Below are positions 2,632 through 39,791 of a DNA stretch of 64,000 nt, one piece after another. The notes beneath the pieces are model-generated. The model was not told the origin of the DNA, searched no databases, and was given only the letters and a program-made list of their open reading frames with translations. The first letter of the stretch is position 1; each line of letters opens with the position of its first letter. A program made the position numbers and the translations under genes. Source of the DNA: an uncultured Acidimicrobiaceae bacterium (GTDB lineage: Bacteria > Actinomycetota > Acidimicrobiia > Acidimicrobiales > RAAP-2); assembly GCA_963783995.1 (NCBI GenBank), contig CAWAPU010000001.1, forward strand, positions 212,348-276,347, written 5' to 3'.

Positions 2632-4105
2632 TTAAGTGTCGCTGCCGAAGATTCGGTTGACCTTCCGTCCGGCCATGGCGAACAGCTCGCGCGGCCGGTA
2701 GTAGATCGTCAAGACCAGGAAGCCAAGGTCGATCAGAATGATGCCGCCGATGGCGAGCGCCCAGACGCCGTGGCCGGGGCCCGTGAACGCAAGGGAGCTC
2801 GGATCGGTGGCGGGTCTTCGCGGTAGTGCCAGAAGCACCACTGCCGGACGAGCCGGTGGCGGTCCCGGGCGACGGCGGGTTCGTCGGGCGTCGGCGTGCC
2901 GTTGCCGCCGGTGATCGTGGCCGTGTCGAGCGTCTCAGACGAGCTACTCGTGCACGTGATCGGGACGTTCGTGCGAGCCAATCGCGACGGTCAAGTCCAG
3001 GGGGCTGGCGCTGGTGAATTGCGGCTGCGTGACGGTCATCGAGGACTGCTGGCCAGCCGTGATGCTTCCGCCGCTTTGCGTCCCCGTCGACAACAAGGCG
3101 GCGTTGCTCGGGTAGCTAGCGGGCACGGTAAAGCTGCCGCTGAGATTGAGCGACGGCGTCCCGATCGCCACCCGTCACGATGAGGGGCAACGTGCCCGAG
3201 AAGGTGACGGTGGCTCCGGGCGTCGTCAATGCTTCGAGAGAGGTCGGGAACTCGATCACGAGCCCGAGTCCCGTATCGGGACCGTTCAACAAGTTCACGT
3301 TGCTCAAGAGGGAATTCGGTACGGCCTTGCTGTTGGCCGCCAGGTTGTCGACCGCCCCTGCGGCTACCGGGATTGGTCTCGAACACGCCCTCGGTCACTA
3401 CGGACGGCAGGTTCACGGGGACCTGTGCCGCGGTGCACGCAAGCGAGTAGTCGGCGAGTCGGCTGGCGCGTTCGAGGAGCCGTGGTGGTCTCGTCGTAGA
3501 GGACGGCGTCGTCGTGGTGGTCGTCGTCGTCGTGGATGACGTGGTCGTGGTGCCGGTATTGCCGGTGTCGCCGGTATTGCCGGTACCGCTCGCAAAGCCG
3601 AGGACCTGTGAGACCTGATCACCGTCCGTATCGCCAAAGGAAATCGTGCAGGCATCCCCGTTTGTCACCTGAGTGGGCGTGGGCGGGCAGGAATACGCGC
3701 CTGCATCCGTCGTCGCACTTCCGCTGCTCGAATCGGTCCCGGTAGTTGGTGGTCCTACTCGTCCCTCGGCAACTGTGAAGTTCGTCGCCGCGAGCACTCC
3801 CGACGCTGATACGGATGCTTCAGCATGGAGAGGGTTTGTGCATGAGACTGGATCTGATTGCCGAGCACCGCAATGGTCGGCTGATCGGGGTCGTTGTTGC
3901 ACTCGACGATCGCTCCGATGGCACTGTCGGACAAACCCGAGCCAGAGACAACCACAACCTGACCACTGGAAAGGTCCGTATCCGGAGCTACCGAAAATGT
4001 CGGAGCCGCGGAAGCTGTTGCTGCGAGGGCGATGGAGCCTGCCCCCGCCAAGAGCAATGCGACGGCGAAGCCGACGGTCGCACGCCTACGACGTGACGTT
4101 TTCAC
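2632..4105 (-). pseudogene. Sortase-anchored (LAFTG) surface protein with neocarzinostatin-like N-terminal domain and Thr-rich linker; at least 7 frame changes
   Basis: GTG 4105 is preceded by AAGGGGG. Signal peptide 'RRRRATVGFAVALLLAGAGSIALAATASA'. 'APTFSVAPDTDLSSGQVVVVSGSGLSDSAIGAIVECN' is NCS-like. Poly-Thr run 'TTTTSSTTTTTTTTTPSSTT'. C-terminus is 'LAFTGPGHGVWALAIGGIILIDLGFLVLTIYYRPRE', i.e. LAXTG plus TM plus basic tail. The coding signal passes through minus-strand ORFs 3755..4165, 3036..3902, 3116..3307, 2944..3171, 2733..2981, an unlisted Gly/Ser piece and 2632..2841. Confidence 0.7.
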
Positions 4106-4569
4106 GCCGCCCCCTTGATGTTGCTCGGAAACAGTTCCGAGCGCCGTTCTCCCAAACACGTGCACGCCTCACCTAGTGGTGCGACAACGTGTGCCTCCAG
4201 AATCGGTCTGACATCCCCCGTTGAGACTTGGCTAAGCTAAGAGCCGGACACCTCGTCGTCAAGCGCTGTTGTGGCTCTGAATATCCCTAAAACTGACGAT
4301 GTTGGGCCGAAAAGCGTCCCTTAACGTGCGCTGCCGGGGGCAGAGGCGCAAAGCGCAATGGGACGGACATCCGTTCGTCGCACTGCCCCCGTCCATACCG
4401 GGAAACGATGAGCGCGGGGATAGGAGGGGCAGCACACGTCCTACGAGGCGCCAGCGGAGGTTGGCGACTGCGACGGTTCGCAATCGTCTGTTATGTCCGC
4501 ATTGGAGCGACCGGAGGGGCAGTCATGCCGTCAAATGGGGGGATCCATTGAAGGAGACAATGTCTGTGC

Positions 4570-6312
4570 TTGGTTTCAAACGAAAGTCAGACGGACAGCG
4601 GAGGGCGTACAGCCCGAGTCGCTGCGTCGCTAGCGCTCATGATGGGCGTGCTCGCCGGAATCGGCGGTGCGATCATCGCGGGTTCCGCGCCGGTGTCAGC
4701 CGGCACGAGCCAATCATTTAGTTATGGCTGCTCATCATCGGCACCACGTACACCTTCGGCGCAGTGGTGTCCGAAACGCCCGACTTGCCGCAAGGGTCAC
4801 CCACGCCTCAAGTTGGTTCGACGTATGGAGAGACGTACTCGGTAACGATCACCATCCCGGTCATCCTGGATTTTCGGCGCCACGGCCGATGCCGCTCTCG
4901 ATCGGAACGGGTATGCGATCGACGCTGAGCATGGACGTCGTTCCTGGAGGGTCCGGCGGCTTCACCAAGGGACTCAGCCGACGCAGGCGGTAAGTGCCGC
5001 AGTGGGAGCCGGGCCCTCAGATACCGCTCACTACTAGTCCGGCACTCGTGCCCGTTCTCGCGTCGGGTAACCCGTCTCAGACGGTGACCTTTGACATGGA
5101 AGCCTCAACTGGACCACCACTCCAGGAACCGGCACCGGGCCCTGGACGTCTACTTTATGGGCCGGGCACTCGATTCCCACGTTTTCTTGGGCGCTACCCA
5201 GAGACACCCACATGTACCCCGAGCGGCACGGACCTGATCGAGTCAATGAGCACGGTCTCTCCCGCCGCCCGAGGATCCGACGGTGGTGGATCAGGCAGCC
5301 ACAGTTTCGTCTGGACAGGGCACGACGATTAATGCCCTCAACGGATCGGCGATGTGGGCGACAACATCAACCCGGCAAGCGTCGCCATCATTTCGGGGCC
5401 ATCGCACGGGACTGCTACTCCGAACGCCAACGGAACGGTCAGTTACCAGAACAACGGGGACAGTTCGGCCACGGACAGCTTCACCTTCCAGGTGCAGAAC
5501 GACACGCAGTCGGACCCGACAACTCCTGCACCGAATGGTGGATTGTCCAACATTGCGACGGCTAATATCTCCATCAGTTTCAACACCTGCAGCGCAGGCA
5601 ACGGTAATGCTGGAGGAGGCAGCGGTGGCACGCTGAACCGTGCAGCCTGCACCAGTTGATCGTGCTGCCGGTTGAACCGGGGAATATTCAGCTGGCCCAG
5701 AACGGCGGCCTGCCGGTCGACGAGCTTGGTAGCGCGTATCTGCGCAGCCCAGCCGACCCTGGCATCACGCTAACGGCAAAGAGCAGTTGGCCTGTGGCGC
5801 CCTGAGTCCCATCACGGTGACCAACGCACGGGTTGGACACCGGATGGCAGGTCACCGGGCAAACGACGGACTTCCTCGACCCCGGCCGACGCCGTGGGGA
5901 CGAAGTGCGACACGCCGGCGACCTACAGCAACCACTGCATCCCGGCGACACCACTTGGAACCTGCTGCGGGCGTAGCTCACGGCATCGTTCCGGGCGACA
6001 CCGCTCAGATTGCACCTGGTACCCAGATGGTTCCGATTGCGGCGACCGCACCTTCGGTCGCGGAACCGCTTCTGGGAACCGTGCAGCCGACCACGGGCGG
6101 CTTGGTCGTCGAGGCCCCGGTGGTGACAGGCCTAGATGACGGGCCGGTGGTCCTGTGTTCGACTCAGTCGTACCAGGCCGGGAACGTTCATCTGCGGTGC
6201 CAGCATTGAGTTGGCCGTGCCGGCCTCCATCGCGGAGCCCATCGTGGACAACAACACGTTGGGAGCTCCGGCTCCGGCTTACGAGGCAACGCTCACACTG
6301 ACGCTCTCGTAA
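4570..6312 (+). pseudogene. Secreted large surface protein A with Ig/cadherin-like repeat and C-terminal WxL-like module; multiple frame changes
   Basis: Signal peptide 'RVAASLALMMGVLAGIGGAIIAGSAPVSA' (alternative ATG at 4560). 'ASVAIISGPSHGTATPNANGTVSYQNNGDSSATDSFTFQV'. C-terminal 'TGWQVTGQTTDFLDP', 'KCDTPATYSNHCIP', '...APAPAYEATLTLTLS*'. Protein-like sequence hops among all three plus-strand frames (ORFs 4570..4845, 4994..5332, 5283..5636, 5354..5659, 5787..6209, 5894..6139 and unlisted pieces). Confidence 0.6.
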
Positions 6313-6364
6313 CTCACGAGCTGACGTGATGTCGCATTGCAGCTAGGTGCGGCTGGAAGTTGTA

Positions 6365-6393
6365 AAGGGGAGCGGGTTCATCCCGCTCCCCTT
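6365..6393 (+). terminator. GC-rich hairpin downstream of surface protein A (candidate intrinsic terminator, weak U-tract)
   Basis: A 12-bp perfect stem, aaggggagcggg (6365-6376) with cccgctcccctt (6382-6393), and loop ttcat. It lies 53 nt after the TAA stop at 6310-6312. Confidence 0.5.
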
Positions 6394-6528
6394 ACGCATC
6401 TTCTAGAAGCAAAGTCTTTTCCGGGCTTCGGGTATTCGACGACGCCTGACCCAATCGCCAGACAGCCGACGTTCGCGGCGAGGCGATGATCAATTTGCTG
6501 GGTGCCACCCTACGATCAGGAGGTGAGG

Positions 6529-9361
6529 GTGAAAAAGGGAGGGGCACGTCGGACCCTCGTCCTGTCTGCTGTGGTAATAGCAGCGATCGCCTCACTTTCT
6601 CCTCTCGGTATGTTGCGCTCGGCGTGCGGTCGTTGCCGCAAGTACAACGGCCTCTCGCGTAACGACGCCTCCGCGACGAGCGTCACGTCGGTCAGCCAAC
6701 AGCTCGCCCTGGACGTCACGGGAGCCCCCGCCCAAGTCGCTGCCGAACAAGACGTTCGACTTGGCGATTTCGGATCCCGGACAGACGCTCCCCGCCACCT
6801 TGCAGGGGTATCCCGTTACGGGAGAAAGTGACGTGACCGTGGTCTACCCGGTTCCAGCTGGGGCCACGCTCGTCTCGGCGTCGCTGAGTGGCGGGTCAAA
6901 CGTCGGAGCCGGGGCAACGGTCACGGAGGTCGCCGATTCTTCAGTCACGGGTCAAACCAACGTCGTGGAGACCGTGCCCGGTCCCATCCTGGCCGGCCAG
7001 ACGTTCTCGTTGCCCACCATCAACCTCACGGTGACCGCCTCCACAAACGTGGGGACCGCGATTTCTGCCGCTCTCCTCGCGTGCAGCCGGCGGCGCCGGC
7101 CACCGTCAGTGCTGACCCAGCCCTGACCGCCACTGTGCAAGTCAATGAGTCGGGGAATGGCTCGACTCCCGTGACCGAGACCTGTTGGCCATCCTCGGCG
7201 ATCCCGACGGTCCTTTCCAGCACCACCGTCGTATTCGTCGATACGACGCCGCCGGCCATTAGCCTGACGACTCCCTCGAAACGGTGCCGTGTACACGGTG
7301 GGCCAGGTGGTAGCTGCTTCGTACAGTTGCAGCGATATTGCCAGCTATGGCATCAGCACCTGCAACGGAACGGTGCCGAGCGGATCAGAGTTAGACAGAT
7401 CGACCACTGGGAGCACACGTTCACGGTGAGCGCAACCGACGATCACGGTACGCCCGCACAGCAGGGTGTGTCTATTACGTGAAGGCGGGACCGACGGCCA
7501 ACGTCATCGGCCCGACCGACTCCGGGGCCCTCACTTCGTCACCGGGACCTCTTGCAGCTTTGGTGGATCGGACTGCCCCGTTTCGGGTGCTCCAGAGGCG
7601 ACCTATGAGGTCGATTCGCCAGTTCCAAACGGTGGCACCTCGTCCTGGGCGATACGTTCAGTGTTCAGTGGCAGATCTTCGAACGGGCGGGTACTCAGCA
7701 ACCGGTGACGGTGCACCGGACCTGACGTGGACTGCGCCCGCACCGAGCGGTGCGTTATCGACGGCCCGGTGACAACGTCGGCGACTGGACTCGCGTCCCG
7801 GACGGTGGGGACGGGCTGCACAGCGCCGCCGGAGCCTGCACCGACGCGACCTGCTCGTCACACGTGTCCGTGCCGGGCGTCCTGGCTGTGAACGGCGTGC
7901 CGGAGAGCGGCGACCGATGGACCTACAGTGCCGTGAACGAGACCCAGCTCGTGATGAGTTGGTCCAAGGATCCATCTCCCGTCGTCGGCACGGACGGCCT
8001 GTATTCGGATGTCAGTTACACCGTGAAGGCGACTACCCCGGGAACCCTGGCGTTGCCCGGCTTCCCGGTCCTCACCGGCGCCATTGGTCTTGCCACAGGC
8101 TCGCTCGCAACACCGAGCCCGGCCGTCTCCTTTGCGGTCGTAGACCCCACTCCTCCCGCTGCTTCGGTTCTCTCCCCGATAAGCGGTGCCTTGATACGAT
8201 ATATGGCCAAACGGTCGACGCTGACTACAACTGTTCGGACCCCGTCGTCGTGATCACCTCGTGTGTAGGAACCGCGCCGGACGACACTCCCATCGATACG
8301 ACCAGCATCACGCCACACAACCTGCACACCTTCACCGTCACCGCTAAGAGATCTCGTCGGCAACACGTCCACCACGGAGGTGGAGTACTACGTGCAAGCG
8401 GCGCCGCCGGTCGCCAACCCGCAGAGCTTCTCAGTGGCCTGGGGAGCCGCCGCGAGCCTGCCGGTGCTCGGCAATGTGACGGTGACCGACTATCCGATCG
8501 ATCCGACGTCGGTGACCGTTGTCAGCCCGCCGTCCGACGGATCCGCCATAGCAAATCCGACGGAACCATCACCTTCACAGACAACCCAGCTCTCACGTAT
8601 GCGAACTACGTGCACACGGGAAACCTTGATGATCCCTTTTCCTATGAGGTGAGTGATCTCGACGGCAACGTGTCGAACGTCACCACAGTGAACCTTACTG
8701 TTCTCCCGCAATTGATGACGACTTCGCTGCCGTCCGTGCCCGAGGGCCTCACCCTGCAACAACCGCAAGCTCAACCCGTCGATTCGATCGGATCCTCGTG
8801 CGGCGGTCCCGGTGTGAGCTTGAATGGCAGTGAACTTGCGTCGTGCGGCGGGTTGGCCCCGGTGACCATTATCAATGACGGGACTGCCAACACTGGGTGG
8901 ACGCTTAGCGGTCAGATAAGTGATTTCGTGGACCCGTCGGCCGCGCCCGAGACGACGTGCGATATTCCCGCGAACTACAACGACCTCTGTATACCCGGGG
9001 GCGACCTCGGATGAACACCATCGGCCGAGGTGGTTTCCGTACTGCCAGGTTCGGGATCCGTGGTGACGCCGGGCCGGTCGATCAGTGCCGCCCTGCCAAC
9101 CTTGGAGAACCCGCAGGTGCCGGTGGGAAATCCATCTCCGGCCTGGTCCGATGGCCAGACGTCTCAGCGCCGGGCGCTTCGTTGACCGCTCCGCCCGGTC
9201 TTCACGACGAACCTCAAGTACTGTGCCAGGCGCCAACAAACGCCTCAGAGGGATGGTTCGTCTGTGGGGCTGCGCTGAGCCTGCCTGTCCCGGCTTCGAC
9301 CGCTGCATCCAGCGGCTCGGGATACCAGGCGACGCTCACCCTCACGCTCACACTGTCCTAA
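6529..9361 (+). pseudogene. Secreted large surface protein B with HYR/Ig-like domains and C-terminal WxL-like module; about 10 frame changes
   Basis: AGGAGG at 6518-6523, then GTG at 6529, reading 'VKKGGARRTLVLSAVVIAAIASLSP'. Two 'TPPA..L..P..G..Y..GQ.V.A.Y.CSD......C.GT.P.G..IDT...G.HTFTV.A.D' units at about 7240-7450 and 8150-8350. C-terminal 'APVTIINDGTANTGWTLSGQISDFVDPSAAPETTCDIPANYNDLCIPGGDLGWTPSAEV...CGAALSLPVPASTAASSGSGYQATLTLTLTLS*'. Coding passes through ORFs 6502..6831, 6761..7126, 7081..7482, 7466..7708, 7479..7772, 7750..8253, 7917..9014, 8380..8652 and 8957..9361. Confidence 0.6.
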
Positions 9362-9453
9362 AGTGAGCGAGCCATTTGGTGATCGAGGACGCGAGGCGAA
9401 ATGGCGGTCGCGTGTAGGAAAAGCAAAAATGTGGCGGGCTGGGGAGGAGCCCA

Positions 9454-10611
9454 ATGAATAGGGGAACGCAAGTCGCGGGTCTGCGGAGACTTGCGCTGGG
9501 GATGACAGCCGCGGCGATTCCCTTCTTGGGAGCAGCGGCGCTTGCCCCGAATGCAGATGCGGCCGTATCGCGACCCGCCGGTTCGGTACCAACGGCAAGC
9601 CCGGCCTCCAATTTTCAGTTCTCGGTCGAGCCCTATGCCTCGCCTGGCACGCAGCAGCGAGCGAACTTCACGTACGAGCTCGCACCGGGCCATTCGATCC
9701 TCGATCAGGTATCGATCCTCAACAGCAGTTCGAGTCCAGAGACCTTCGTCGTATACCCGGAGGATGCAACCAACATCCCGGGCACCGGTGGCTTCGGGTT
9801 TGAACAGCAGGGAAAAATCCACAATACGTCCGTCGGCAAGTGGCTCAACATCGGTCAGACACAGTTCACGGTGCCCGTCGGCAAACAAGTCGTCGATACC
9901 TTCCAGCTCTCGGTTCCTGCCGACGCGACCCCAGGCGACCACGTCGGGGCGATTGTGGTCCAGGAATTGCACTCCGCCACCCAGGCACCCTCCAAAGAAG
10001 GTGTGAACCTGGTCCTTCGCTTCGCCGTGCCGGTGTTTCTCCGCGTGATAGGCCCGGTCAAGCCGGGCATGACCATCGAGAATGTCACCGTCTACCACGA
10101 CAGTCCCTTGATTCCCTACGTGAGCGGTCAAGCGAAGACAGCCGTGCGATTCACGTTGGTCAATACGGGTAACGTCATTCTGCTCCCGAAGTCGGCGAAG
10201 GTATCCATCTCGGCCCTCATCGGTGGAACGATTCACAGTTTGACCGTGAAACGTGTCGCCGGAGCTCAGTCCAAGCGGGATCCGCTGCCATCCGAACTGC
10301 TGCCGGGCGGAAAGCTCATTCTGACCGAGCTATGGAGCGGGATCCCTCCGTTCGATCCATTGACCGCTCATGTGAGCGTTTCTGCTACGGAACCCAGCTC
10401 CGGGATGCAGGTCGCGTCAGGTTCCTCAGTGACATTCTGGTACTTCCCGTGGCTGTTGGTGGTCATCATCATCGCTCTGGTCGTCGGCTTTGTTCTGTGG
10501 CGTCGTTCGCGCCGACGACGCCAAGGTGGATCGAGCGCGCCGAGCGCATCGGTCGCGGGAAGTGTTCCCAACTCTCCGGCTACCCAGCCGGTTGAGGAAG
10601 TCGGTGTATGA
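9454..10611 (+). CDS. DUF916/DUF3324-like (WxL-interacting, CscA-type) cell-surface protein with C-terminal membrane anchor
   Basis: Intact 385-aa ORF with a signal peptide. 'FQFSVEPYASPGTQQRANFTYELAPGHSILDQVSILNSSSSPETFVVYPEDA' and 'GDHVGAIVVQE', followed by a second beta-rich half. C-terminal TM 'WLLVVIIIALVVGFVLW' plus 'RRSRRRRQ'. Confidence 0.7.
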   Translation: MNRGTQVAGLRRLALGMTAAAIPFLGAAALAPNADAAVSRPAGSVPTASPASNFQFSVEPYASPGTQQRANFTYELAPGHSILDQVSILNSSSSPETFVVYPEDATNIPGTGGFGFEQQGKIHNTSVGKWLNIGQTQFTVPVGKQVVDTFQLSVPADATPGDHVGAIVVQELHSATQAPSKEGVNLVLRFAVPVFLRVIGPVKPGMTIENVTVYHDSPLIPYVSGQAKTAVRFTLVNTGNVILLPKSAKVSISALIGGTIHSLTVKRVAGAQSKRDPLPSELLPGGKLILTELWSGIPPFDPLTAHVSVSATEPSSGMQVASGSSVTFWYFPWLLVVIIIALVVGFVLWRRSRRRRQGGSSAPSASVAGSVPNSPATQPVEEVGV

Positions 10612-11627
10612 GTCGACTCGGCCGAGTCGCCGGGCTGAGGATGACAGCTTGTGCAGGCGGGCTGGGTGCTCTGCTCGGACTGGCCGGGCTGATCGGTATT
10701 CCGGAGTTGGGTGCAGTCGTACCAGCTGCTGCTGCCGGCCCTAGTGCGATAGCGACGAGTCCAGTCACCTCGTCCGGGCAGTTGGAACGTGTAAGCGGAA
10801 GTGGCTGGGACGATGTCGGTGGGGTCGTCACCGTTCAGATATGCGGTCAGGACGCCGTCAACCTCACGAGCGATTGCGATGAGGCGAATACGTATGACGC
10901 GGCTATTCGACCGGGTGGAACCTTCTACGCCGGACTGTACGTGCGGATACCACAGATGCCGTGCCCCTGCGTCATCTATGTCACGAGTCAGTCTGGTGAG
11001 TCCAGCAAGATTCCGATCCAGATAGTCGGCGCTCCCGTCGCGCCGATTGTTCCGCAGATCAATCCTCTCGGTCCTCTGGCGTTGGACGGAAGGCTCGATA
11101 CCCCGACGTCTGTCACATCGTGGTTTGGCGGCCCGAAGAACGTGACGTTGCTATTGCACGTGAAGAATATTTCAGGAATCATTCTTCCTTCGGCTGTGGT
11201 TTCCGTCAGAGTGGGCCGAGGCGGAAGTCCTACGGAGTTCGTTGCGGGGAAGACGTTGGCCACGTTGCCTGTCGGTGCGAGCCGAGTCGTGAACATACCC
11301 CTGACCATCCCTGCCGTCACGTACGGCCGATACACCGTGCTCGTGGCGACGGCAGTTGACGGCAGCACGGTAACGACCAAGGTGCAGACAAGCAGTTGGC
11401 CGTGGGCCTGGCTCGTCATCGCCGTCCAGCTATTCCTGATTTTGCTCGTGTTGATCCTGAGGCGAGCACGACGAGGACGTGAAGCTCAGATCCAGTCACT
11501 GGCGCCGGAATCACCCGTAGCTCCATCGTCAGGCGTGCACCCGGAATTGTCCGCTGAATGTCGGTCGGGCTCTCGGGCTGCGTTTCCAAGTGGGTTTTGC
11601 GGCCTTGGTCCCGTTGAGAAGTTGTGA
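10608..11627 (+). CDS. Secreted, C-terminally membrane-anchored protein (NCS-like Cys-containing N-domain plus CARDB-like domain), family uncertain
   Basis: Its ATG overlaps the upstream TGA (ATGA at 10608-10611). Signal peptide present. 'SSGQLERVSGSGWDDVGGVVTVQICG...CPCVIYV'. 'VTLLLHVKNISG...GRYTVLVATAVDG'. TM 'WAWLVIAVQLFLILLVLIL' plus 'RRARRGRE'. Confidence 0.55.
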   Translation: MSRLGRVAGLRMTACAGGLGALLGLAGLIGIPELGAVVPAAAAGPSAIATSPVTSSGQLERVSGSGWDDVGGVVTVQICGQDAVNLTSDCDEANTYDAAIRPGGTFYAGLYVRIPQMPCPCVIYVTSQSGESSKIPIQIVGAPVAPIVPQINPLGPLALDGRLDTPTSVTSWFGGPKNVTLLLHVKNISGIILPSAVVSVRVGRGGSPTEFVAGKTLATLPVGASRVVNIPLTIPAVTYGRYTVLVATAVDGSTVTTKVQTSSWPWAWLVIAVQLFLILLVLILRRARRGREAQIQSLAPESPVAPSSGVHPELSAECRSGSRAAFPSGFCGLGPVEKL

Positions 11628-11802
11628 TTATGCGAACTGCAGGTCAGGAGGGCGTGTTGAGAGAAGCATGAAACCCGCGGTGCAGACCTAAGGACTGCTA
11701 GCTAAGGTACCGATTCACTTCTGGGCGACGGGCACGGCGTCTGCTCAATGGAAGTAGGAGGAGCATCGGCTGGACACGGCTGGTGCTGGAGAAGGGCAAT
11801 AC

Positions 11803-12612
11803 ATGAGTGCAGTAAGCGAAGGCAAGCCTTCCGTGTTTGTTCGCGCGGCAAGCGCCGACTTTGAGCCGCCGGGGAGCGAAAGCTCACACGGCGATACCCA
11901 CGGTTCACTCTCCGTGGTCGTGGTCGATGTCCTTCGTCCGAAGGGCCAGTCGCCGGGTCTCTTGGTCCAATCCATTGCCGAAATCGCACGCAACACCGAC
12001 TTCGAGGTTTCAATTGTCTCCGGCGCAGATGCCCGGCCCACCTGGGATGAAACCGGGCAAAAGGGAGCGAGGGTCGTTCTGATTCCGATTTACCTTGCGC
12101 CGACCGATGGCCGAACACTGGTGGATGCCCTTTCCCTCTGGGAGGCACCGGCGGCTTTGTGCGAGGAACTCGCAAGGGCGGGCGTGTTGGTGGTGGCGGT
12201 CATGGGCGGTGCCCCTGCGGCTCTCCTGGCGAGCTGCATCAGCAATGGTGCGATAGGACTCACGAGCAGCGAGGATCTCAACCGAGTATTCCTTCAGCTG
12301 AAGGATGCGATTGATACACGCGGAAACAATGGTTCCCGTTTGAATAAATCCCGAGTCGACCGCCCTGTCTTGCCGAGTCACTACAAGGCGTTGATCTCCC
12401 TGACTGTGACAGAGCGGCGGATTTTGCTCGCCATGATGCAGGGTTGGTCGGCCTCGGATATCGCGATCGCCTTAGTGGTGTCCATACTGACCGTACGCAC
12501 CCACATCCGCTCGATTCTCGCCAAGCTGCACGTGTCGTCACAGATTGGCGCGGTGGCAATCGGATATGGAGCGGACCCTGGCGACGTTCAGGTCGAAGAA
12601 CCCGTTCCTTGA
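11803..12612 (+). CDS. LuxR-family transcriptional regulator (receiver-like N-terminal region plus C-terminal HTH)
   Basis: 269-aa ORF. C-terminal 'LTVTERRILLAMMQGWSASDIAIALVVSILTVRTHIRSILAKLHVSSQIGAV' is a LuxR/GerE helix-turn-helix. Confidence 0.75.
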   Translation: MSAVSEGKPSVFVRAASADFEPPGSESSHGDTHGSLSVVVVDVLRPKGQSPGLLVQSIAEIARNTDFEVSIVSGADARPTWDETGQKGARVVLIPIYLAPTDGRTLVDALSLWEAPAALCEELARAGVLVVAVMGGAPAALLASCISNGAIGLTSSEDLNRVFLQLKDAIDTRGNNGSRLNKSRVDRPVLPSHYKALISLTVTERRILLAMMQGWSASDIAIALVVSILTVRTHIRSILAKLHVSSQIGAVAIGYGADPGDVQVEEPVP

Positions 12613-12635
12613 AGACGTCGAACCCAGAGTCGAGC

Positions 12636-13702
12636 CTAGAAACTCCCAGGAAGGGCGAGGCTCACGTGCTCGAAGCAGACCAGCAGTGCGAGAAGGAACA
12701 CTGGGACGGCGGCCAGCACGATCACGATCCGCAGTGCGCGCCGCTTCGTCACCCGCCACAAAACGTACGCCCCGACCGCGACCCCTAACGTCAACAGCGC
12801 CCACAAGACCGGGGAAAGCCATGGGGCACTGTCGCCTCCGAGGGAGGAGCCCGTGGTCCCGCCGGCGAGTTCGGTGATAGCGGTGGACGTCGTCGTCGTG
12901 GTCAGCGGCTGCGCCGGCTTTCCGTCGAACGCGGCGGTGACCACGAGCCGCTGGGCGGCGCTGTAGCGCGGGTTGCACGTCGTCAGCGTGAGCGTGGCCT
13001 TTCCCGGCGTCGGGTCCAGGACGGCCGTGTCGTCCGGCGAGACGATCTGGCTCCCGGTCACGGTGTAGCGGAAATAGCCCTGCGTCGTCAGGACGTAGAT
13101 GTCGTCGCCCGACGCGAGCGCGTCGAGGTTGTAGAAGGGGTGGGCGTACGTCGTGCGGTGGCCGGCGATGGCGACGTTCCCGACCTCGCCCGGCAGCGCA
13201 GTGCCCGGGTAGTGCCCGGGGCCCTGCTCGAGCTGGGCGTCGCCGACCCCCTGCACGATGGTGTCGGAGATCCCGATCCGCGGGATCCACAACTGGCCCA
13301 CCGCGGCCCCCACCAACGGCTGGGATATGGCGGAGGCCGTCTGGTTGGCGAGCACCTCGCGACCCGAGCCGATCGTGTCCGTGTCTGCGTTCCGGTCCTT
13401 GTTCAGCGTCGGGGTCGACGTCGAGTCGTCGCGGCAGCGGGGGCCGGCTTGGGTGCGGAGGCGGGAATGGTCGTATGGAGCTGTTGGGCCAGCTCCGACT
13501 TGAGGTGCGACTGCGCGTGGTTCTCGTAGAGCGCAGTCCCCCAGAGCTGATACGCCACAAAGGCCAAGAGCAGTAGCCCGCACGCCACGACCCAGAGCGC
13601 GACGCGCACAACGATTGTCGCCCCCCGTCCCACGTGGGGGAGTGTACGAGGCCGCTCGCAACCGGGGTCAGCGGGCCTTCTAATTAGGAGCCCCCCGGTC
13701 AC
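12636..13702 (-). CDS. Class E sortase, interrupted by one frame change near 13440
   Basis: The N-terminal TM 'VRVALWVVACGLLLLAFVAYQLWGT' is in ORF 13403..13702. The catalytic part 'QLWIPRIGISDTIVQG...GPGHYPGTALPGEVGNVAIAGHRTTYAHPF...ATLTLTTCNPRYSAAQRLVV' is in ORF 12636..13661. The two frames join if one base is added to the G5 run at 13439-13443. Confidence 0.8.
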
Positions 13703-21310: not shown

Positions 21311-22039
21311 GTGGGGGTGCCTGAGGCCGTCATCTTCGACTTCTACGGGACGCTGGCCCGCTGGGCCGACACGCAGAAGGCCAGCTACGAAACGGTGTTT
21401 TCCTCTTTCGGCTACGAGTTGCCGCCAGCGGTCCGCGAAGGGTACTTCTCGCTCTACGACGGCGTGGACCACGCCGAGCATTCAGTCAGCGAGGACGCCT
21501 ACGAGGCCTGGGTCTGTTTTCGTCTGCGCGAACTGACCCGGACGTGCGGCGTGGACGAAGCGGAACGCGAGGCCGTGGTCGACGCGCTGCGCGATCTGGA
21601 CCAGCACCCGATGGTCGCGTACCCCGAAGCCGCCGAGACGCTCGAGTTGCTGCGCGACGCCGGGGTAACGGTGGGTGTCTGTTCCAACTGGGGCTGGGAG
21701 CTCGACTCCTTTCTCGAGCAGGTCGGGCTGCTGCGGCTCGTCGACTGTGCGGTCACGTCGGCACGGGCGGGCTCGCGCAAGCCCCATCCGGGGATCTACG
21801 CCTGCTCGCTCGAGGCGTTGGGAGTGCGGCCGGAGCAGGTGGTGTTCGTCGGGGACTCGTGGGAGCCCGACGTGCGCGGCCCGCGGCGCGAGGGGATGAC
21901 GGCGGTCCACGTCTGGCGACCAGACGAGCGCGTCGGTCAGGAGGCGCCCCCCCTCGAGCCAGGCGACCATCGGATCAGCGATCTGACCGGCGTCGTGCCC
22001 CTGGCGAGACCGGAGGGTGAAGTTTCTAGCCAGAGGTAA
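21311..22039 (+). CDS. HAD-superfamily hydrolase
   Basis: 'VIFDFYGTLARW' (DxYGT variant of motif I), 'VCSNWGWE', 'VFVGDSWEPDVRGP'. Confidence 0.75.
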   Translation: MGVPEAVIFDFYGTLARWADTQKASYETVFSSFGYELPPAVREGYFSLYDGVDHAEHSVSEDAYEAWVCFRLRELTRTCGVDEAEREAVVDALRDLDQHPMVAYPEAAETLELLRDAGVTVGVCSNWGWELDSFLEQVGLLRLVDCAVTSARAGSRKPHPGIYACSLEALGVRPEQVVFVGDSWEPDVRGPRREGMTAVHVWRPDERVGQEAPPLEPGDHRISDLTGVVPLARPEGEVSSQR

Positions 22040-25000
22040 TTGTCACGGTGTCGGTGGACGAGCTGGTCCCCGTGTTGGTCAGGCCGGCGGGTGGCGCCAG
22101 GGTGACCGTGTCGGAGAGCGAGCCGGTACCGGCGTCGGGCTCGGCGTCGATGATGAAGGAGATGCTGGAGCCCGCGGGCAGGTTCAACGTGTCGTCGATG
22201 TTGCCAGTGCCCTCATGGCCGGTGTCGCTTGCCCCCCCGCTGTCGTTCGAAACGAACCACATAGTGGAAATGAAGCTGTCACCGAAGACGTCGCTGAGGC
22301 TCGCTCCGTTCGCGGCGTTCGACCCGTTGTTGGTCACGGTGACCTTGTACTCGATGGTGAGGTCTTCGAGGATCGTGCCACCGGTGGTGTCGTTGGTAGC
22401 CGAGTTATAGGTTCCGCCGTCGACGTCGGTGATCATGACCCCGAGGTCGACGGAGCTGGGCACGTCGACGGTCGCTGTCGCCGTCGTGGTCGGGTCGGTG
22501 TCGACGGTGGAGCTCGAGACCGTGGCGGTCGTGGTCGAGCTGCCGGTGCCGTTTGCGTCCACCTCGACGAGCAGGGTGTCCGTGGCCCCGCTCGCAAGTG
22601 TCCCGAGCGACCAGGTCACCATGTGGGTGGAGGAGTCGTAGACGCCGCCGTCGCCGGCGGACACGAAGGCGAGGCCGGAGGGCAGCAGATCGGTGGCGCC
22701 GACGCCGGTGGCGGTCGAGGGGCCGTTGTTGGTGACCGTCACGGTGAAGCCGACCTGGGTGCCCAGGTCGGGCGCCGCGTTGTTGGCCACGTTGGTGATC
22801 GTGAGGTCCGACTGGGGGTCCAATGTGGTGGTGTCGGTGGAGGCGCTGTCCCCGGTGTTGGTGAGCCCGGCGGGTGGGCCGACCGTGGCCGTATCCGACA
22901 AGGTACCCGTGGCCGAGGGGTTGATCTCGGCCACGATGATGTAAGTGACGCTCTCGGCGGGGGTCAGGTCAAGTGTGTCGCTCAGGTCGCCGACGCCCGT
23001 GGGGTTCGTCTGGCCTCCGGTCCAGCTGTCAGAGCTGATGTCCGGATTCGAAGCCAACGGGTCGTTCACGGTCACACCCTCTGCGTCGTTGGAACCGCGG
23101 TTCGTGACGGTGAGGGTGTAGATGATCTCGCTTCCCGGTGTGGCGGTGCCACCGGTGGTGTCGTTGGTAGCCGAGTTATAGGTTCCGCCGTCGACGTCGG
23201 TGATCATGACCCCGAGGTCGACGGAGCTGGGCACGTCGACGGTCGCTGTCGCCGTCGTGGTCGGGTCGGTGTCGACGGTGGAGCTCGAGACCGTGGCGGT
23301 CGTGGTCGAGCTGCCGGTGCCGTTTGCGTCCACCTCGACGAGCAGGGTGTCCGTGGCCCCGCTCGCAAGTGTCCCGAGCGACCAGGTCACCATGTGGGTG
23401 GAGGAGTCGTAGACGCCGCCGTCGCCGGCGGACACGAAGGCGAGGCCGGAGGGCAGCAGGTCGGTGGCACCGACGCCGGTGGCGGTCGAGGGGCCGTTGT
23501 TGGTGACCGTCACGGTGAAGCCGACCTGGGTGCCCAGGTCGGGCGCCGCGTTGTTGGCCACATTGGTGATCGTGAGGTCCGACTGGGGGTCAATGTGGTG
23601 GTGTCGGTGGAGGCGCTGTCCCCGGTGTTGGTGAGCCCGGCGGGCGGGCTGACCGTGGCGGTGTTCGAAAGGTGCCCGTGGCCGAAGGGCTGACCGGCCG
23701 TCGATGGTGTAAATGACGCTCTCGGCGGGGGTCAGGTCAAGTGTGTCGCTCAGGTCGCCGACGCCCGTGGGGTTCGTCTGGCCTCCGGTCCAGCTGTCAG
23801 AGCTGATGTCCGGATTCGAAGCCAACGGGTCGTTCACGGTCACACCCTCTGCGTCGTTGGAACCGCGGTTCGTGACGGTGAGGGTGTAGATGATCTCGCT
23901 TCCCGGTGTGGCGGTGCCACCGGTGGTGTCGTTGGTAGCCGAGTTATAGGTTCCGCCGTCGACGTCGGTGATCATGACCCCGAGGTCGACGGAGCTGGGC
24001 ACGTCGACGGTCGCTGTCGCCGTCGTGGTCGGGTCGGTGTCGACGGTGGTGCTCGAGACCGTGGCGGTCGTGGTCGAGCTGCCGGTGCCGTTTGCGTCCA
24101 CCTCGACGAGCAGGGTGTCCGTGGCCCCGCTCGCAAGTGTCCCGAGCGACCAGGTCACCATGTGGGTGGAGGAGTCGTAGACGCCGCCGTCGCCGGCGGA
24201 CACGAAGGCGAGGCCGGAGGGCAGCAGATCGGTGGCGCCGACGCCGGTGGCGGTCGAGGGGCCGTTGTTGGTGACCGTCACGGTGAAGCCGACCTGGGTG
24301 CCCAGGTCGGGCGCCGCGTTGTTGGCCACGTTGGTGATCGTGAGGTCCGACTGGGGGTCCAATGTGGTGGTGTCGGTGGAGGCGCTGTCCCCGGTGTTGG
24401 TGAGCCCGGCGGGCGGTGTGAGGGTGGCGGTCGTTGAGAGTGTGCCCGTCGCCGACGGGCCGACCAGGGCGTCGACTGTGTAAATCACGCGGGAGCTCGC
24501 AGCCAAGTCGACCGTGTCGGCCACCGCGCCGGTGCCCGAAGGCGACGCGTCACTCGCTCCGCCCGTCGTCGATGCGGTCCACGAGTCGGACTCGATGGAG
24601 GCCGGCAGTGCATCGGCCACAGTCACGCCGGTCACGGGCTGCGGCCCGTCGTTCGCCACGGTGATGGTGAAGGTGATGTCGGCCCCGGGGACGGCCGACC
24701 CCCCGGTGGTGTCGTTGGAACCGGGGTCGTAACTGCCGCCGCCGTCGTCGGTCACTTTGACGCGCAGGTCGGCCGTCGCGGGTGGCGCTACCACGGCGGG
24801 GGTGGACACCGAGGCTATGCCAACGATGTCGTGCACCTTGAGGTCGTCGCCTGGGAGGGAGCCCTCATAGGGTGCATCTCCGAAGGAGAAGACGCCTCCG
24901 TCGACGCCCGCCATCCAATACCCACCACCGTCCGGCGTGGAGGCGACGCCCACGATGTCGTCGATTCCGACGTGATCACCCGGGAGCGATCCCTCATAGG

Positions 25001-25770
25001 GCGCGGTTCCGAAGGCGAACGCGCCACCGTCCGCTCCGACCAGCCAGTACCCGCCGCCGTCGCCCGTCGGGGCGATGCCCACGATGTCGTGCGCGCTGAC
25101 CTGCTCGCCCGGCAGCGACCCCTCGAAGGTCGCGTCGCCGAAAGCGAAGACGCCGCCGTCCGCCCCCACCAGCCAGTACCCGCCGCCGTCGCCCGTCGGG
25201 GCGATGCCCACGATGTCGTGCGCGCTGACCTGCTCGCCCGGCAGCGACCCCTCGAAGGTCGGCGTCGCCGAAAGCGAAGACGCCGCCGTCGGCCCCCACC
25301 AGCCAGTACCCGCCGCCGTTGCCCGTCGAGGCGATGCCGACGATGTCGTGCACCGTAATCCGGTCGCCCGGGAGCGACCCCTGGTATGTGGCGTCTCCGA
25401 ACGTGAAGACGCCGCCCTCTGAGTCAGTCAGCGCATCGCCTCCGCCCTCAGAGGAGGGGCCGATGCCAACGATGTCGTGGGCGGCGACTTGGTCGCCCGG
25501 GAGCGACCCCTGGTACGGCGCGCCACCGAAGGCGAATACCCCGCCGTCGGAGCCCACCAATTGATACGACCCGGCACCGCCGGGTTGAGCGGACGTCAGC
25601 TGGTCGTCCGCCATCAGCGCATCGCGGTGACCGGTGGTGAGCGCGTTCCAGGCGAGTCCCGCGACGAGACAGAGACCGAGCAAGATGAGCGGCGCGATGC
25701 AAAAGGAAGACGCCCGTGACCGTCGCCGACGCGCGCTGAGTCTCGCTCCCCGGCCATACGTCTCGGTCAT
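22026..25770 (-). CDS. Large N-terminally anchored surface protein: six ~43-aa 'GGYWLVGADGGVFAFGDA' repeats followed by tandem DUF11-type domains; frame break at about 25261 plus an out-of-frame patch at about 23591-23700
   Basis: ATG 25770 (or 25797), then TM 'FCIAPLILLGLCLVAGLAW'. The repeats run from ORF 24994..25797 into ORF 22026..25211. DUF11 signature 'DLTITNVANNAAPDLGTQVGFTVTVTNNGPSTATGVGATDLLPSGLAFVSAGDGG...VTWSLGTLASGATDTLLVEV' appears 3 times. No C-terminal sorting signal. Confidence 0.8.
22379..24415 (-). repeat. About 2.6 near-identical tandem copies of a 768-771-bp unit (two DUF11-type domains per unit)
   Basis: Identical antisense ORFs at 22429..22641, 23200..23412 and 23968..24180 (offsets 771 and 768). 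Long identical stretches are seen by eye, with more divergent partial copies on both sides. Confidence 0.85.
24810..25566 (-). repeat. Six tandem 129-bp (43-aa) coding repeats; two adjacent copies almost identical
   Basis: 'cagccagtac' recurs at 25041, 25170 and 25300. Copies 25041-25169 and 25170-25299 differ by one extra g (25261/25262) and one substitution. Confidence 0.8.
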
Positions 25771-34712: not shown

Positions 34713-35198
34713 TCAGGCGATGACCTTGGAGAATCGGAGATGCCACGTCGGCAGCGGCTCGCCGCGCTTGTCGACGTGGAGGCGTTCCCACCCGCTCGCC
34801 TCGTAGAGAGCAACCGCCTCGGGTTGGCGATCGCCCGTGGAGAGGACGAGGGCGGAGAGTCCGAGGTTCCGTGCCGCGTCTTCCAGTTCGATCATCAGTG
34901 CCCGGCCGATCCCACAGCCGCGCAAACCGGGATCGACCCACAGGCGACGGACCTCACCGACGCCGTCGGCGACCGTGCGCACACCGGCGCCGCCCACCGG
35001 ATGGTCTTCCTCGACCCGGGCCACGAGGAAGGCGCCGCTGGGCGGGTCGAACATCGCGGCGGTGAGCCCGAGCTCGCCATCGTCGAGCCCCCCATAGCGA
35101 GCCACGAGTTCCGCCTCGGCGTGGCTGACCACCGAGCGTGGTCCGTCTGACCCGTACGGCTCGTCGCGCACGGTCACGGCGGTAGCGGGTTGATGCAT
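34713..35198 (-). CDS. GNAT-family N-acetyltransferase
   Basis: 161 aa from ATG 35198: 'EVRRLWVDPGLRGCGIGRALMIELEDAARNLG', 'ALYEASGW'. Confidence 0.8.
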   Translation of the reverse strand: MHQPATAVTVRDEPYGSDGPRSVVSHAEAELVARYGGLDDGELGLTAAMFDPPSGAFLVARVEEDHPVGGAGVRTVADGVGEVRRLWVDPGLRGCGIGRALMIELEDAARNLGLSALVLSTGDRQPEAVALYEASGWERLHVDKRGEPLPTWHLRFSKVIA

Positions 35199-35264
35199 AC
35201 CCTCTATCCTTGCCAAGACGCCCGAGGCTTCGATCGCCCCGGCGTCAAGGACCTCTGCGCACCT

Positions 35265-38200
35265 GTGTTCACACCTGTCCCACCCGATATCGATTTTGTA
35301 GGCCTTGAACAGGCCGAACTGGCCCGCTGGGCAGCTCATCGCGTCTTCGAACGCTCGATCGAGCAACGAGAGGGTGCACCGCCCTGGGTCTTTTTCGAGG
35401 GCCCGCCGACCGCCAACGGCCTGCCCGGGCTCCACCACGTCTGGGCCAGGGTCTACAAGGACCTGTTCTGTCGCTTTCGCACGATGGACGGCGCCTTCGT
35501 GGCCCGCCGCGCCGGCTGGGACACGCACGGGCTGCCGGTCGAGGTAGAGGTCGAGAAGAAGCTCGGGATCACCGGCAAGGAGCAGATCGAGGAACAGGTC
35601 GGCATCGCGGAGTTCACCCGCCTGTGCCGCGAGTCTGTCTACTCCTACGTCGACGAGTTCCAGCGCCTGACGACCCGCATCGGCTATTGGGTTGACATGG
35701 ACGCGGCGTACTGGACGCTCGATCCTTCGTACATCGAATCGGTCTGGTGGCATCTGCAGCAGCTCTTCGACCAAGGGCTGCTCTACGAGGACCTCAAAGT
35801 GGTGCCGTATTGCCCGCGCTGTGGCACGGCCCTGTCGAGCCACGAGCTCGGCCAGGAGGACGTCTACCGCGACGAGGAGGACGAGTCGGCCTACGTCCGC
35901 TTCCGTCTGGTCGACCCGGACCCCTACGTCCTCGGCGACGCGGAGTGGCTGGCCGTCTGGACCACCACTCCCTGGACCCTGCTCTCGAACACCGGCGTCG
36001 CGGTCAACCCCGACCTCACGTACGCCGTCGTCGATCAGATGCTGATGGCGGACGAATTGGTCGACGCCGTGCTGGGAGAGGGGGCGAGCGAGCGCGTCAC
36101 GAAGCGTGTGCCGGGCGCGGCACTCGTCGGGCTGCACTACGAGCGTCCCTTCGACGACCTCGACACGCCGCGCGGAACGGACGGCTGGCGGGTCGTCCCG
36201 GCGGCCTACGTGACGACCGACGAAGGAACCGGGCTCGTCCATCTGGCGCCGGCCTTCGGTGAGATCGACCGCCAGATCGGCCGCGAGAACGGACTGCCGT
36301 CGCTGAACCCGGTCGGTCCCGACGGTCGCTTCACCGCTGAGATCGGCTGGCTGGCGGGCCGCGAGGTGCGTGAGGCCAACCACGACATCAACGACCATCT
36401 CGAGTCGAAGGGCCTGTTGATCCGCCGCTACCTCTACGTCCACTCGTACCCACACTGCTGGCGGTGCCGGACGCCGCTCATCTACTGGGGCAAGCCGAGC
36501 TGGTACATCGCGACCTCGACCCGCAAGGACGATCTCCTGTCGGCCAACGCGACGGTGGACTGGCACCCCTCCTATATCCGCGACGGTCGGTTCGGTGAGT
36601 GGCTGGCGAACAACGTGGACTGGGCGCTGTCGCGCGACCGGTTCTGGGGCACTCCGCTGCCGATTTGGCGCTGCGGGCGGGACCACCTGCGCTGTGTCGG
36701 TTCTCTCGCCGAGCTCTCGGACCTCGCGGGACGGGACGTCACGAGCATCGACCCCCACCGGCCCGACGATCGACGAGGTGACTTTCGCCTGCGCCACCTG
36801 CGCGGCCGAAGGCTACGACGACGAGCTCGCCGTCGTCCCGGCGGGTCGAGCCGGTGATCGACGCCTGGTTCGACTCGGGCTCCATGCCGGCGGCCCAGGT
36901 CGGGTACCCGCACTCGCCGGGGTCCACCGAAGCGTTCACCTTCCCGGCGGACTTCATCTCAGAGGCGATCGACCAGACCCGGGGCTGGTTCTATTCGCTG
37001 CTGGCGATCAACGTGTTGGTCTTCGGCGAGAGCCCGTACCGCCACGTGGTGTGCCTCGGCCACATCGTCGATGCCGACGGCCGCAAGATGTCCAAGTCGA
37101 TCGGCAACATCATCGACCCCTGGAAGATCCTCGACACGCGAGGCGCCGACGCCATGCGGTGGTGGATGTTCAGCCAGGGGTCGCCGTGGACGCCGACCCG
37201 GGCGTCGCTCGGAGCGATCGACACCGCGATGCGCGACATGTTGCTGACGCTGTGGAACACCTTCAGCTTCTTCTCCACCTACGCGTCGCTGAACGGGTTC
37301 GACCCGGCCGATCCGGCCATCCCAGGCCCGACCGAGCGCGGCCCTCTCGACCGCTGGATCCTGTCGCGCCTGGCCAGCACGACGGCCCAAATGACCGAGT
37401 CGCTCCGGGACTACGAGCCGCTCGACGCGGCCTTGGCCGTGGGGTCCCTGGTCGACGACCTCTCCAATTGGTACGTGAGGCGCAGCCGTCGACGCTTCTG
37501 GCGGACCGATCCCGATGCGCCACCGAGTGACACGCTGGCGGCGCAGGCGACGCTGCACTCCGTCCTGACGACTGTCTCATTGCTGCTGGCTCCGCTGTGC
37601 CCCTTCGTGTCCGACGCCCTCTGGCGCCATCTGACCGGTGCCGAGGAGTCCGACTCGGTCCACCTAGCGGACTGGCCCTCGGCCGAAGACGGGCTCATCG
37701 ACCCGGGCCTCGAGGCGCAGATGGCGCTGGCCCGTCGACTTACGTCGCTCGGCCGGGCCGCACGCAGCGAGGCCGGGATGAAGGTGCGACAGCCGCTCGC
37801 CCGGGCCCTGGTCTTCCTTCCCGCAGATTCGCCCGAGATCTTGCGCGACATCGTGGAGGACGAGCTGAACGTCGACGAGATCGACACCACGGACGAGCTC
37901 AACGAGGTCCTCGAGTTCGAGCTGGTCCCGAACTTCCGAGCGCTGGGGCCTCGCCTCGGCGAGCTGGTCAAGGAGCTCAAGCCCGCGCTCGCGTCACTCG
38001 ACACCGCGGCCGCCGCCGCCGAGCTGGAAGCAGGTCGACCGATCACCGTGGTGCTCGGCGGTGAGCCGGTCGAGCTGTCTCCCGATGACGTTCAGTTGCG
38101 CGTCCGTGGCCAGGAAGGCTTTGCGGTCTCGCGAGAGAGCGGGGAGGTCGTCGCCCTCGATCTGACCATGAGCGACGAGCTCCGGAAGCGTGGCTTGGCA

Positions 38201-39746: not shown

Positions 39747-39791
39747 TCGGGAGAAGTCGTTCGGGGACTCCGGGCGGGGACCCGGAGTGGC

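Follow-up and report, generated by a model that had tools for sequence, protein, structure and literature searches.

A probable WxL/WxLIP-type cell-surface display locus in an Acidimicrobiia-like actinobacterium

The DNA analysed here (the window) is a stretch of 64,000 nucleotides from contig CAWAPU010000001.1 of assembly GCA_963783995.1, assigned to an uncultured Acidimicrobiaceae bacterium. Positions 2632-13702 of the window hold seven genes that probably form a cell-surface display locus of the WxL type, a system built on secreted proteins that end in a WxL domain and on a membrane-anchored WxL-interacting protein (WxLIP). Gene A (2632..4105, minus strand) encodes a secreted protein of about 490 residues that ends in a LAFTG motif, and is transcribed divergently from genes B (4570..6312, plus strand) and C (6529..9361, plus strand), which encode large WxL-type proteins of about 580 and 946 residues in their intact forms. 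They are followed on the plus strand by gene D (9454..10611), which is intact and encodes a WxLIP homologue of 385 residues (CscA or DUF916 type), by gene E (10608..11627), which encodes a second secreted, membrane-anchored protein, and by an intact gene for a GerE/LuxR-family regulator of 269 residues (11803..12612). A gene for a class E sortase (12636..13702, or ..13609, minus strand) lies convergent to the regulator gene. Every feature that had been listed in an earlier reading of the letters and open reading frames (the sequence-only reading) was recovered at, or a few bases from, the position given for it.

The product of gene D has a signal-like N-terminal segment, read directly from the sequence, and a C-terminus that reads WLLVVIIIALVVGFVLWRRSRRRR, in which a single hydrophobic transmembrane helix is followed by RRSRRRR. 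The Pfam profile PF06030 (WxLIP_PGBD, DUF916) matches D over profile positions 1-120 of 121 (E 5.8e-6, 26.8 bits against a cut-off of 27.3) and is matched by 72 of the 77 relatives of D, the best of them at 7.8e-12. A profile of the D family searched against the PDB matched the EfmWxLIP1 chain at E 8e-10, with an alignment that covers the conserved N-terminal strand region. The AlphaFold2 model of D (mean pLDDT 84.9) has two beta-sandwich domains and a C-terminal helix at residues 333-357, and the top three solved structures found with it by Foldseek were those of the Enterococcus faecium WxLIP, 9i1y and 9i25, at E 1.4e-13 to 6.4e-13; the alignment to 9i1y spans 289 columns on a chain of 267 residues. 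From their deposit titles we take 9i1y to be the WxLIP of E. faecium and 9i25 to be a WxLIP bound to a long WxL protein. The structural matches, the profile match to EfmWxLIP1, the near-universal occurrence of PF06030 among relatives and the two-sandwich, membrane-tethered model together identify D as a WxLIP homologue. The second half of the relatives matches NPCBM_assoc (31), fn3_5 (19) and DUF7507 (18) among the 77 proteins. The next-best Foldseek matches of the D model after the WxLIP structures are chaperones of chaperone-usher systems, namely CfaA, FimC, PapD, Caf1M and CsuC, at E 4e-8 to 4e-6.

Genes B and C share a C-terminal module. In its intact form B consists of a signal peptide, a Big_9/cadherin-like immunoglobulin-like (Ig-like) region and a WxL-like module at about 5698-6312, and C of a signal peptide, Ig-like domains (Big_9, cadherin-like and a weak SigLec-like match) and a WxL-like module at about 8754-9361. 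Up to its stop codon, gene B (end at 6312, read over 6154-6312) finishes in ...GTFICGASIELAVPASIAEPIV...YEATLTLTLS, and gene C (end at 9361) in ...GYQATLTLTLTLS. The module is about 200 residues long and about 41% identical between B and C, and it forms the last 200 or so residues of B, of C and of more than 35 relatives, the extreme C-terminal position of a WxL domain. All 21 of 21 module sequences keep the Trp of the proximal motif, G-W-T-L, after which comes a conserved G-Q-x-x-D-F; six cysteines are also conserved. A distal motif, G-Y-x-A-T-L-T-L-T-L or, with fewer fixed positions, Y-x-x-x-L-T-L-x-L, stands 0-2 residues from the end of the protein.

The identity of the module is drawn from its relatives. 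A profile built from 21 modules and searched against 5.8 billion sequences matched Micromonosporaceae proteins at E 1e-13 to 1e-9, and these proteins clear the Pfam cut-off for WxL (25.2-32.3 bits), some being named 'WxL domain' in UniRef. Aligned with hhalign, the module set and the Micromonosporaceae set gave a probability of 99.8% (E 7e-29, 43% identity). WxL (PF13731) is also the sole family that recurs on the module itself, in 7 of 36 members, sub-threshold and always collinear at profile positions of about 87-211. A word-index search for the module returned only 11 proteins, and an exhaustive search with a profile that retained the upstream Ig repeat (profile A2) was dominated by giant repeat proteins, about 40 of its best 150 matches being true module matches. 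The profile link and the hhalign result, both leading to proteins above the Pfam threshold, indicate that the B/C module is a remote, divergent WxL domain.

Gene E overlaps gene D by ATGA at 10608-10611, with a ribosome-binding-like GAGGAAG about 8 nucleotides upstream, as expected of the translational coupling to a second membrane-anchored protein that the sequence-only reading had described. Its product has a Cys-rich N-terminal domain, an NPCBM_assoc/CARDB-like Ig domain (the NPCBM_assoc match is weak in the E protein of a related locus, L002) and a transmembrane helix with a basic tail. The E family aligned by hhalign with the second domain and transmembrane region of the D family at 96.9% (E 1.7e-10), a score to which the transmembrane helix and basic tail contribute, and the alignment suggests that E is distantly paralogous to D in its C-terminal half; a PDB profile search with E gave only noise from the transmembrane segment and basic tail. 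Gene E is conserved in four related loci (L002, L003, L004 and L006). In the window a 1-nucleotide deletion at about 11548 lengthens its open reading frame and alters the tail, and the true end is therefore probably near 11557.

The two genes that close the locus were recognised by their PF00196 and Sortase domain matches, as had been claimed for them. In the regulator PF00196 covers residues 199-251 (E 1e-9, 38.3 bits against a cut-off of 23.5), and its N-terminal 190 residues gave no confident domain match, NCBIfam returning only partial response-regulator matches. The regulator gene is present in L002 and L003, and a single-sequence search found it in only four loci. Promoter and terminator scans over 2.4-14 kb gave results at or below shuffle expectation. 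The sortase has an N-terminal transmembrane helix, a catalytic domain and a C-terminal transmembrane segment, and matches Pfam Sortase at E 1.9e-34. The intact copy on a closely related contig in the European Nucleotide Archive (L001) scores 172 bits against NF033747, the NCBIfam class E model (cut-off 160), and the window copy is 96% identical to it over residues 54-324.

The end of gene A at 2632 reads SSLAFTGPGHGVWALAIGGIILIDLGFLVLTIYYRPRELFAMAGRKVNRIFGSDT before the stop codon, and a direct reading of this C-terminus bears out the LAFTG motif, hydrophobic helix and basic tail assigned to it earlier. The remainder of the protein consists of an N-terminal neocarzinostatin-like Ig domain and a Thr/Ser-rich linker; the neocarzinostatin family raised in the sequence-only reading was found (PF00960, E 4.7e-6), as a weak match of 27 bits. 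A similar tail (LAYTG/LAFTG...YRRPRQL) occurs on the gene adjoining the sortase in L006/7 and L009, and gene A is a predicted substrate of the class E sortase.

The conservation of this neighbourhood was assessed by counting co-occurrence from the envelope coordinates of hidden Markov model (HMM) matches over 87 actinobacterial loci. In 69 of the 87, an open reading frame with the WxL-like module precedes the WxLIP domain on the same strand and ends no more than 500 nucleotides before it. Upstream sequence of 1.5 kb or more was available for 78 loci, and 74 of these carry the module; 9 of the 13 loci that have no module also have no upstream sequence. A scan of species-representative genomes returned at least 320 WxLIP-type loci; the best 80 of these were all from Actinomycetota, including Streptomyces, Micromonospora, Dactylosporangium, Nonomuraea, Nocardioides, Salinispora and several families of Acidimicrobiia. 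The order B-C-D-E with a sortase recurs in L002 and, in different flanking contexts, in L003 and L006/7, so the search for the same gene order elsewhere in the phylum that had been proposed earlier found a conserved neighbourhood. A sorting-signal open reading frame is present in 25 of the 87 loci, and both it and the sortase are accessory to the pair. Some actinobacterial proteins already carry the label 'WxL domain' or 'DUF916' in databases, and the system is not rare in Actinomycetota.

Two variants of the arrangement were also encountered. In Micromonospora sp. WMMD812 (L005; CP114904.1, 4779-11583) the genes encode, in this order, a Big_3_5 LPRTG protein, a sortase, an ABC ATPase, a Big_3_5+WxL protein, DUF916 and a small LPRTG protein; the small LPRTG gene overlaps the end of the WxLIP gene, and the sortase gene is found two genes upstream. 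This cluster has the layout of the csc clusters of Firmicutes. Proteins P0299-P0311 (Actinoplanes, Catenuloplanes and others) combine the WxL domain in one chain with an HtaA haem-binding domain (PF04213, E ~1e-38), and fusions of this kind suggest that the same anchor may display haem-uptake receptors as well as adhesin-like Ig arrays.

The domain identities, the gene order, the coupling of D to E and the conservation of the WxL-then-WxLIP pair are direct observations. Taken with the roles proposed below and with the frameshifts read as artefacts, they lead us to consider the locus, with a probability of roughly 0.8, a WxL/WxLIP-type cell-surface display locus of an Acidimicrobiia-like actinobacterium. 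The identity of D, the profile link of the module and the conserved neighbourhood support, in its essentials, the earlier proposal of an actinobacterial Csc/WxL counterpart accompanied by a LAXTG protein, a class E sortase and a LuxR regulator.

A number of results count against this interpretation. The distal WxL consensus is YXXX(L/I/V)TWXLXXXP (PMC5817068), and the module departs from it, Leu replacing the Trp that names the family and the XXXP tail being absent, although the same Trp-less distal motif occurs in Micromonosporaceae proteins that Pfam WxL accepts. No window module reaches the WxL gathering threshold of 25 bits, the best relatives standing at 19.3 and 15.8 bits. A Pfam scan of the L001 copies of B and C gave no WxL match at E <=1, and intact B and C, scanned directly with Pfam and NCBIfam, yielded Big_9/cadherin matches only. 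PDB sequence-profile searches with the module returned no WxL chain, although the WxLIP-WxL complex 9i25 is deposited, and with the Micromonosporaceae proteins only HtaA structures were found, through their N-terminal domain. The AlphaFold2 model of the module (pLDDT 81.6) had a best Foldseek match in the PDB of E 0.28, with no 9i25 chain among the 50 listed. What the sequence-only reading had called a WxL-like layout thus holds by way of the Micromonosporaceae, at about 200 rather than about 170 residues, and fails at the direct Pfam threshold and at the distal Trp. The same is true in part of D, described as an intact, membrane-anchored DUF916/DUF3324 protein: its open frame, DUF916 domain and transmembrane helix stand, whereas PF11797 (DUF3324) matches neither D nor any of the 77 relatives, even though a second beta-sandwich is present in the model. 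The locus has no small WxL protein or module-only gene, both of its WxL-type proteins being large (about 580 and 946 residues), and only 15 of the 87 loci have a sortase 10 kb or less away. Given its native base composition, the sortase may be a housekeeping enzyme that merely adjoins the block. No paper on actinobacterial WxL clusters, and no experiment on any actinobacterial member, was found in the literature.

The reading frames of A, B, C and the sortase are broken in the window. Three frames each were needed in tblastn to cover A, B and C in the window, and two for the sortase, which has one frameshift near 13424. Collinear coverage of single proteins across these frames ruled out that A, B and C are truly separate small open reading frames. 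L001 is 98.4% identical to the window over 20.6 kb and encodes an identical D protein, and its whole-gene calls are 490 residues for A, 564 for B, 946 for C, 316 for E and 324 for the sortase; A and C are open on it and B is open except for a shifted C-terminus. The more distant L002 (79% DNA identity) carries the same genes and flanks, all open, with a B protein of 582 residues and a complete C-terminal module. Relative to L001 the window has 108 indel positions in total, about 95 of them in 2.4-9.4 kb, and the indel events number 17 in A, 42 in B, 24 in C, none in D, 1 in E, 2 (compensating) in the regulator gene and 1 in the sortase; apart from these, D, E and the regulator gene are 100% identical in DNA. 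A TGG-to-stop change at 9012-9014 adds a lesion to gene C. Gene A (compared with L001 3164-4636) differs by 125 substitutions, of which 84 are synonymous and 41 non-synonymous. Elsewhere in the window, an isoleucyl-tRNA synthetase (IleRS)-like class I tRNA synthetase at 35151-38206 (plus strand) is split over two overlapping frames with a break at about 36.8 kb: the open reading frame 35151-36857 corresponds to tRNA-synt_1 positions 3-259, and 36782-38206 to positions 293-404 with Anticodon_1 and DUF5915.

Base composition also sets the locus apart. GC content per kb is 59.5-64.7% within 3-13 kb and mostly 66-76% elsewhere, the only other low bin being 40-41 kb (63.8%). The GC dip reported earlier for 4.2-12.6 kb is real but modest, and shallower than the hand counts had made it. 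Genes A to LuxR have a GC content at third codon positions (GC3) of 0.65-0.74, whereas the flanking genes have 0.85-0.95 and the sortase gene 0.90. L002 shares both the dip and the synteny, and no dip is seen in L003, L005 or L006.

The broken frames could mean that the locus is a decaying pseudogene cluster, in which A, B, C and the sortase carry genuine lesions and function is left to D, E and the regulator alone. The sheer number of lesions, about 85 indel events and one nonsense substitution across A-C and the sortase, speaks for such decay and against a working display locus, as do the shift of the B C-terminus in L001 also, a frameshift at a different site of gene C in a third assembly (P0124), and the small share of indels (28 of 108) that fall in homopolymers of three or more bases. 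In gene B, however, indels outnumber substitutions (42 to 22), which is unlike natural decay, and many indels of the window form close compensating pairs. Gene A, with its excess of synonymous changes indicating purifying selection, is fully open in L001, as is gene C, and frameshifts are not confined to surface proteins: the essential IleRS-like gene is broken in the same window, which points to residual indel errors in the assembly, and housekeeping regions outside the locus carry a background of about one indel per kb. The contig names of related records also resemble long-read assembler output, as far as such names allow a judgement. We therefore hold decay to be quite improbable and regard the frameshifts in A, B, C and the sortase as most likely uncorrected long-read consensus errors concentrated in a strain-variable region. 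The substitutions in gene A are of a different kind and represent true allelic divergence at a surface-protein gene, in a pattern suggestive of allele replacement, or of a strain mosaic, limited to the gene of the sortase substrate. As a practical warning, surface-protein genes of metagenome-assembled genomes built from long reads can carry many consensus indels and be mis-called as fragments.

The low GC3 of genes A to LuxR, the dip that spans them and the occurrence of homologous loci in unrelated flanking contexts in L003, L004 and L006, where GC3 equals that of the flanks, would fit an island acquired horizontally from a lower-GC donor beside a resident sortase gene. The presence of the same block, flanks and dip in L002 implies that any transfer predates the split from that lineage and is not recent. 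No integrase, tRNA, Rfam hit or repeat boundary was seen at the borders of the block, and weak codon bias in rarely expressed surface genes rich in Thr, Ser and Asn can also lower GC3. Horizontal acquisition, as first suggested, thus keeps its low-GC3 block but loses ground to the shared synteny and to a sortase that lies outside the block; an island is a tentative explanation with the balance somewhat against it, and an old acquisition or an allele replacement in this lineage is possible.

If the WxL/WxLIP reading holds, B and C would be exported by Sec, and their N-terminal Ig/cadherin-like arrays would be the functional part, probably adhesive or polymer-binding. Their C-terminal modules of about 200 residues would act as divergent WxL domains that keep the proximal G-W-x-L, and D, with its two beta-sandwiches tethered at the membrane by the C-terminal helix, would be the cognate WxLIP. 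By analogy with what has been proposed and crystallised for E. faecium, D may capture and stabilise the WxL domains at the wall, probably by donating strands to an incomplete sandwich. Protein E, coupled to D and itself a putative paralogous membrane-anchored Ig protein, is probably a second subunit or spacer. The adjacent class E sortase would link the product of gene A covalently to peptidoglycan by way of LAFTG, a role that the LPXTG protein has in Firmicute clusters, and the GerE-type regulator probably controls the operon. Binding of WxL by WxLIP, binding to peptidoglycan, the specificity of the sortase and the regulation are predicted from homology.

The chaperone-usher chaperones matched by D raise the possibility of a Gram-positive analogue of fibre assembly in place of a static wall anchor, in which D is a chaperone-like strand donor and the modules of B and C form polymers or are passed on. 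Pilins (PapA and CfaB) are among the weak top matches of the module model, and in the published AlphaFold2 model that accompanied the definition of WxLIP a DUF916 hairpin inserts into WxL (PMC10599100). The pilin matches are nonetheless non-significant (E >=0.28, TM 0.2-0.3), D is tethered to the membrane, no usher-like gene is present, and two-Ig-domain architectures readily match each other; for polymerisation of the modules no evidence was found. We consider fibre assembly unlikely, and take the chaperone matches of D and the pilin matches of the module, both obtained with predicted models, as hints of a donor-strand-like mechanism.

A broader view would make the WxL-WxLIP pair an ancient, phylum-wide surface-display module of Actinomycetota, in which a WxL domain that lacks the Trp, is stabilised by disulfides and bears diverse passengers such as Ig adhesins and HtaA haem binders would be completed and held by a chaperone-like two-Ig protein tethered to the membrane. 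We put this forward as a speculation that may well prove wrong. WxL/WxLIP clusters have been investigated almost exclusively in Lactobacillales and Bacillales, where they have been read as adhesion or virulence devices of gut commensals, and a phylum-wide module, if true, would overturn this 'host-binding in commensals' view and define a general non-covalent route of wall anchoring in high-GC Gram-positive bacteria. What is conserved is a WxL-like-then-WxLIP pair in soil and water Actinomycetota, with varied passengers and, in some cases, linked to substrates of class E sortases. If the pair functions as it does in enterococci, it would represent a general way for monoderm bacteria to anchor proteins non-covalently at the wall, would help to annotate hundreds of actinobacterial surface proteins now called 'hypothetical', and would supply natural variants (Trp to Leu, added disulfides) with which to test the features of WxL that matter for binding.

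The remainder of the window contains several features of separate interest. A second large surface-type protein of 1133 residues is encoded at 22029-25427 (minus strand), in a region of strong positive GC skew; it has six DUF11 repeats (E 6e-111) and a C-terminus, ...TDTVTITSG, that lacks a sorting signal. A DUF222 gene at 38484-39791 (minus strand), within the segment 38484-41025, adjoins the low-GC bin at 40-41 kb. In Actinobacteria, links between DUF222 proteins and HNH endonucleases or mobile elements are frequent. Upstream of gene A, positions 1-2594 encode a DUF1707/guanylate-cyclase-type protein and a protein with an adenylate-cyclase regulatory domain, both conserved at the same position in L002; the second of these genes also has indels, at 1506 and 2421.

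With regard to known systems, WxL clusters have been described for Lactobacillales and Bacillales (PMC1534035, PMC5817068), and more than 91% of WxL sequences are found in Firmicutes (PMC9772566). Hassan et al. (2023) defined a WxL cluster as at least one WxLIP gene and at least two WxL genes within four genes, and noted that a typical cluster has one small and one large WxL protein (PMC10599100). The consecutive genes B, C and D make up a cluster under this definition, provided that the divergent module counts as a WxL domain. The clusters of E. faecium and Enterococcus faecalis (Locus A-C and the Elr operon; PMC10599100) likewise place two secreted proteins ending in WxL beside a two-sandwich, membrane-anchored WxLIP, and have a sortase-anchored protein in the same cluster. 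The window locus differs from them in its distal Leu-x-Leu in place of Trp-x-Leu, with the protein ending directly afterwards, in the six conserved cysteines, in the lack of a small WxL protein, in a second D domain that is not recognised as DUF3324, and in the extra D-like paralogue E coupled to D. It also pairs LAXTG with a class E sortase rather than LPXTG with class A, and its host is a high-GC, probably environmental, Acidimicrobiia-type bacterium rather than a gut Firmicute.

The csc clusters of Lactiplantibacillus plantarum (Siezen et al. 2006, PMC1534035) comprise the same four functional classes in one co-directional group of genes, CscA with DUF916, CscB and CscC with WxL and CscD with LPXTG. 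In the window locus, by comparison, the sortase substrate is a 490-residue protein of LAXTG type that is divergently transcribed, no link to carbohydrate-utilisation genes is seen, and genes for a LuxR-type regulator and for a sortase lie alongside. For Actinobacteria, both class E sortases and LAXTG signals are established knowledge (PMC5148588, PMC13251363), and the pairing of the two is shared with SrtE1/E2 and the chaplins of Streptomyces coelicolor and with SrtE of Actinoplanes; here, the substrate is not a chaplin or hydrophobic sheath protein and the sortase gene lies beside a WxL/WxLIP cluster. The automatically annotated, uncharacterised WxL proteins of Micromonosporaceae (HtaA+WxL and Big_3_5+WxL), encoded beside DUF916 genes, have the same module family (43% identity), a ...Y-x-A-x-LTLTLA ending, the WxL-then-WxLIP order, a coupled downstream gene and a nearby sortase. 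They differ in passing the Pfam WxL threshold, in having one WxL gene and not two, in the coupled downstream protein, which is a small LPRTG protein and not a membrane-anchored E, and in N-terminal passengers of the HtaA haem-binding and Big_3_5 types. Collectively, these comparisons place the locus as a divergent, uncharacterised actinobacterial variant of the known WxL/WxLIP system, one that is widespread and not unique to this genome.

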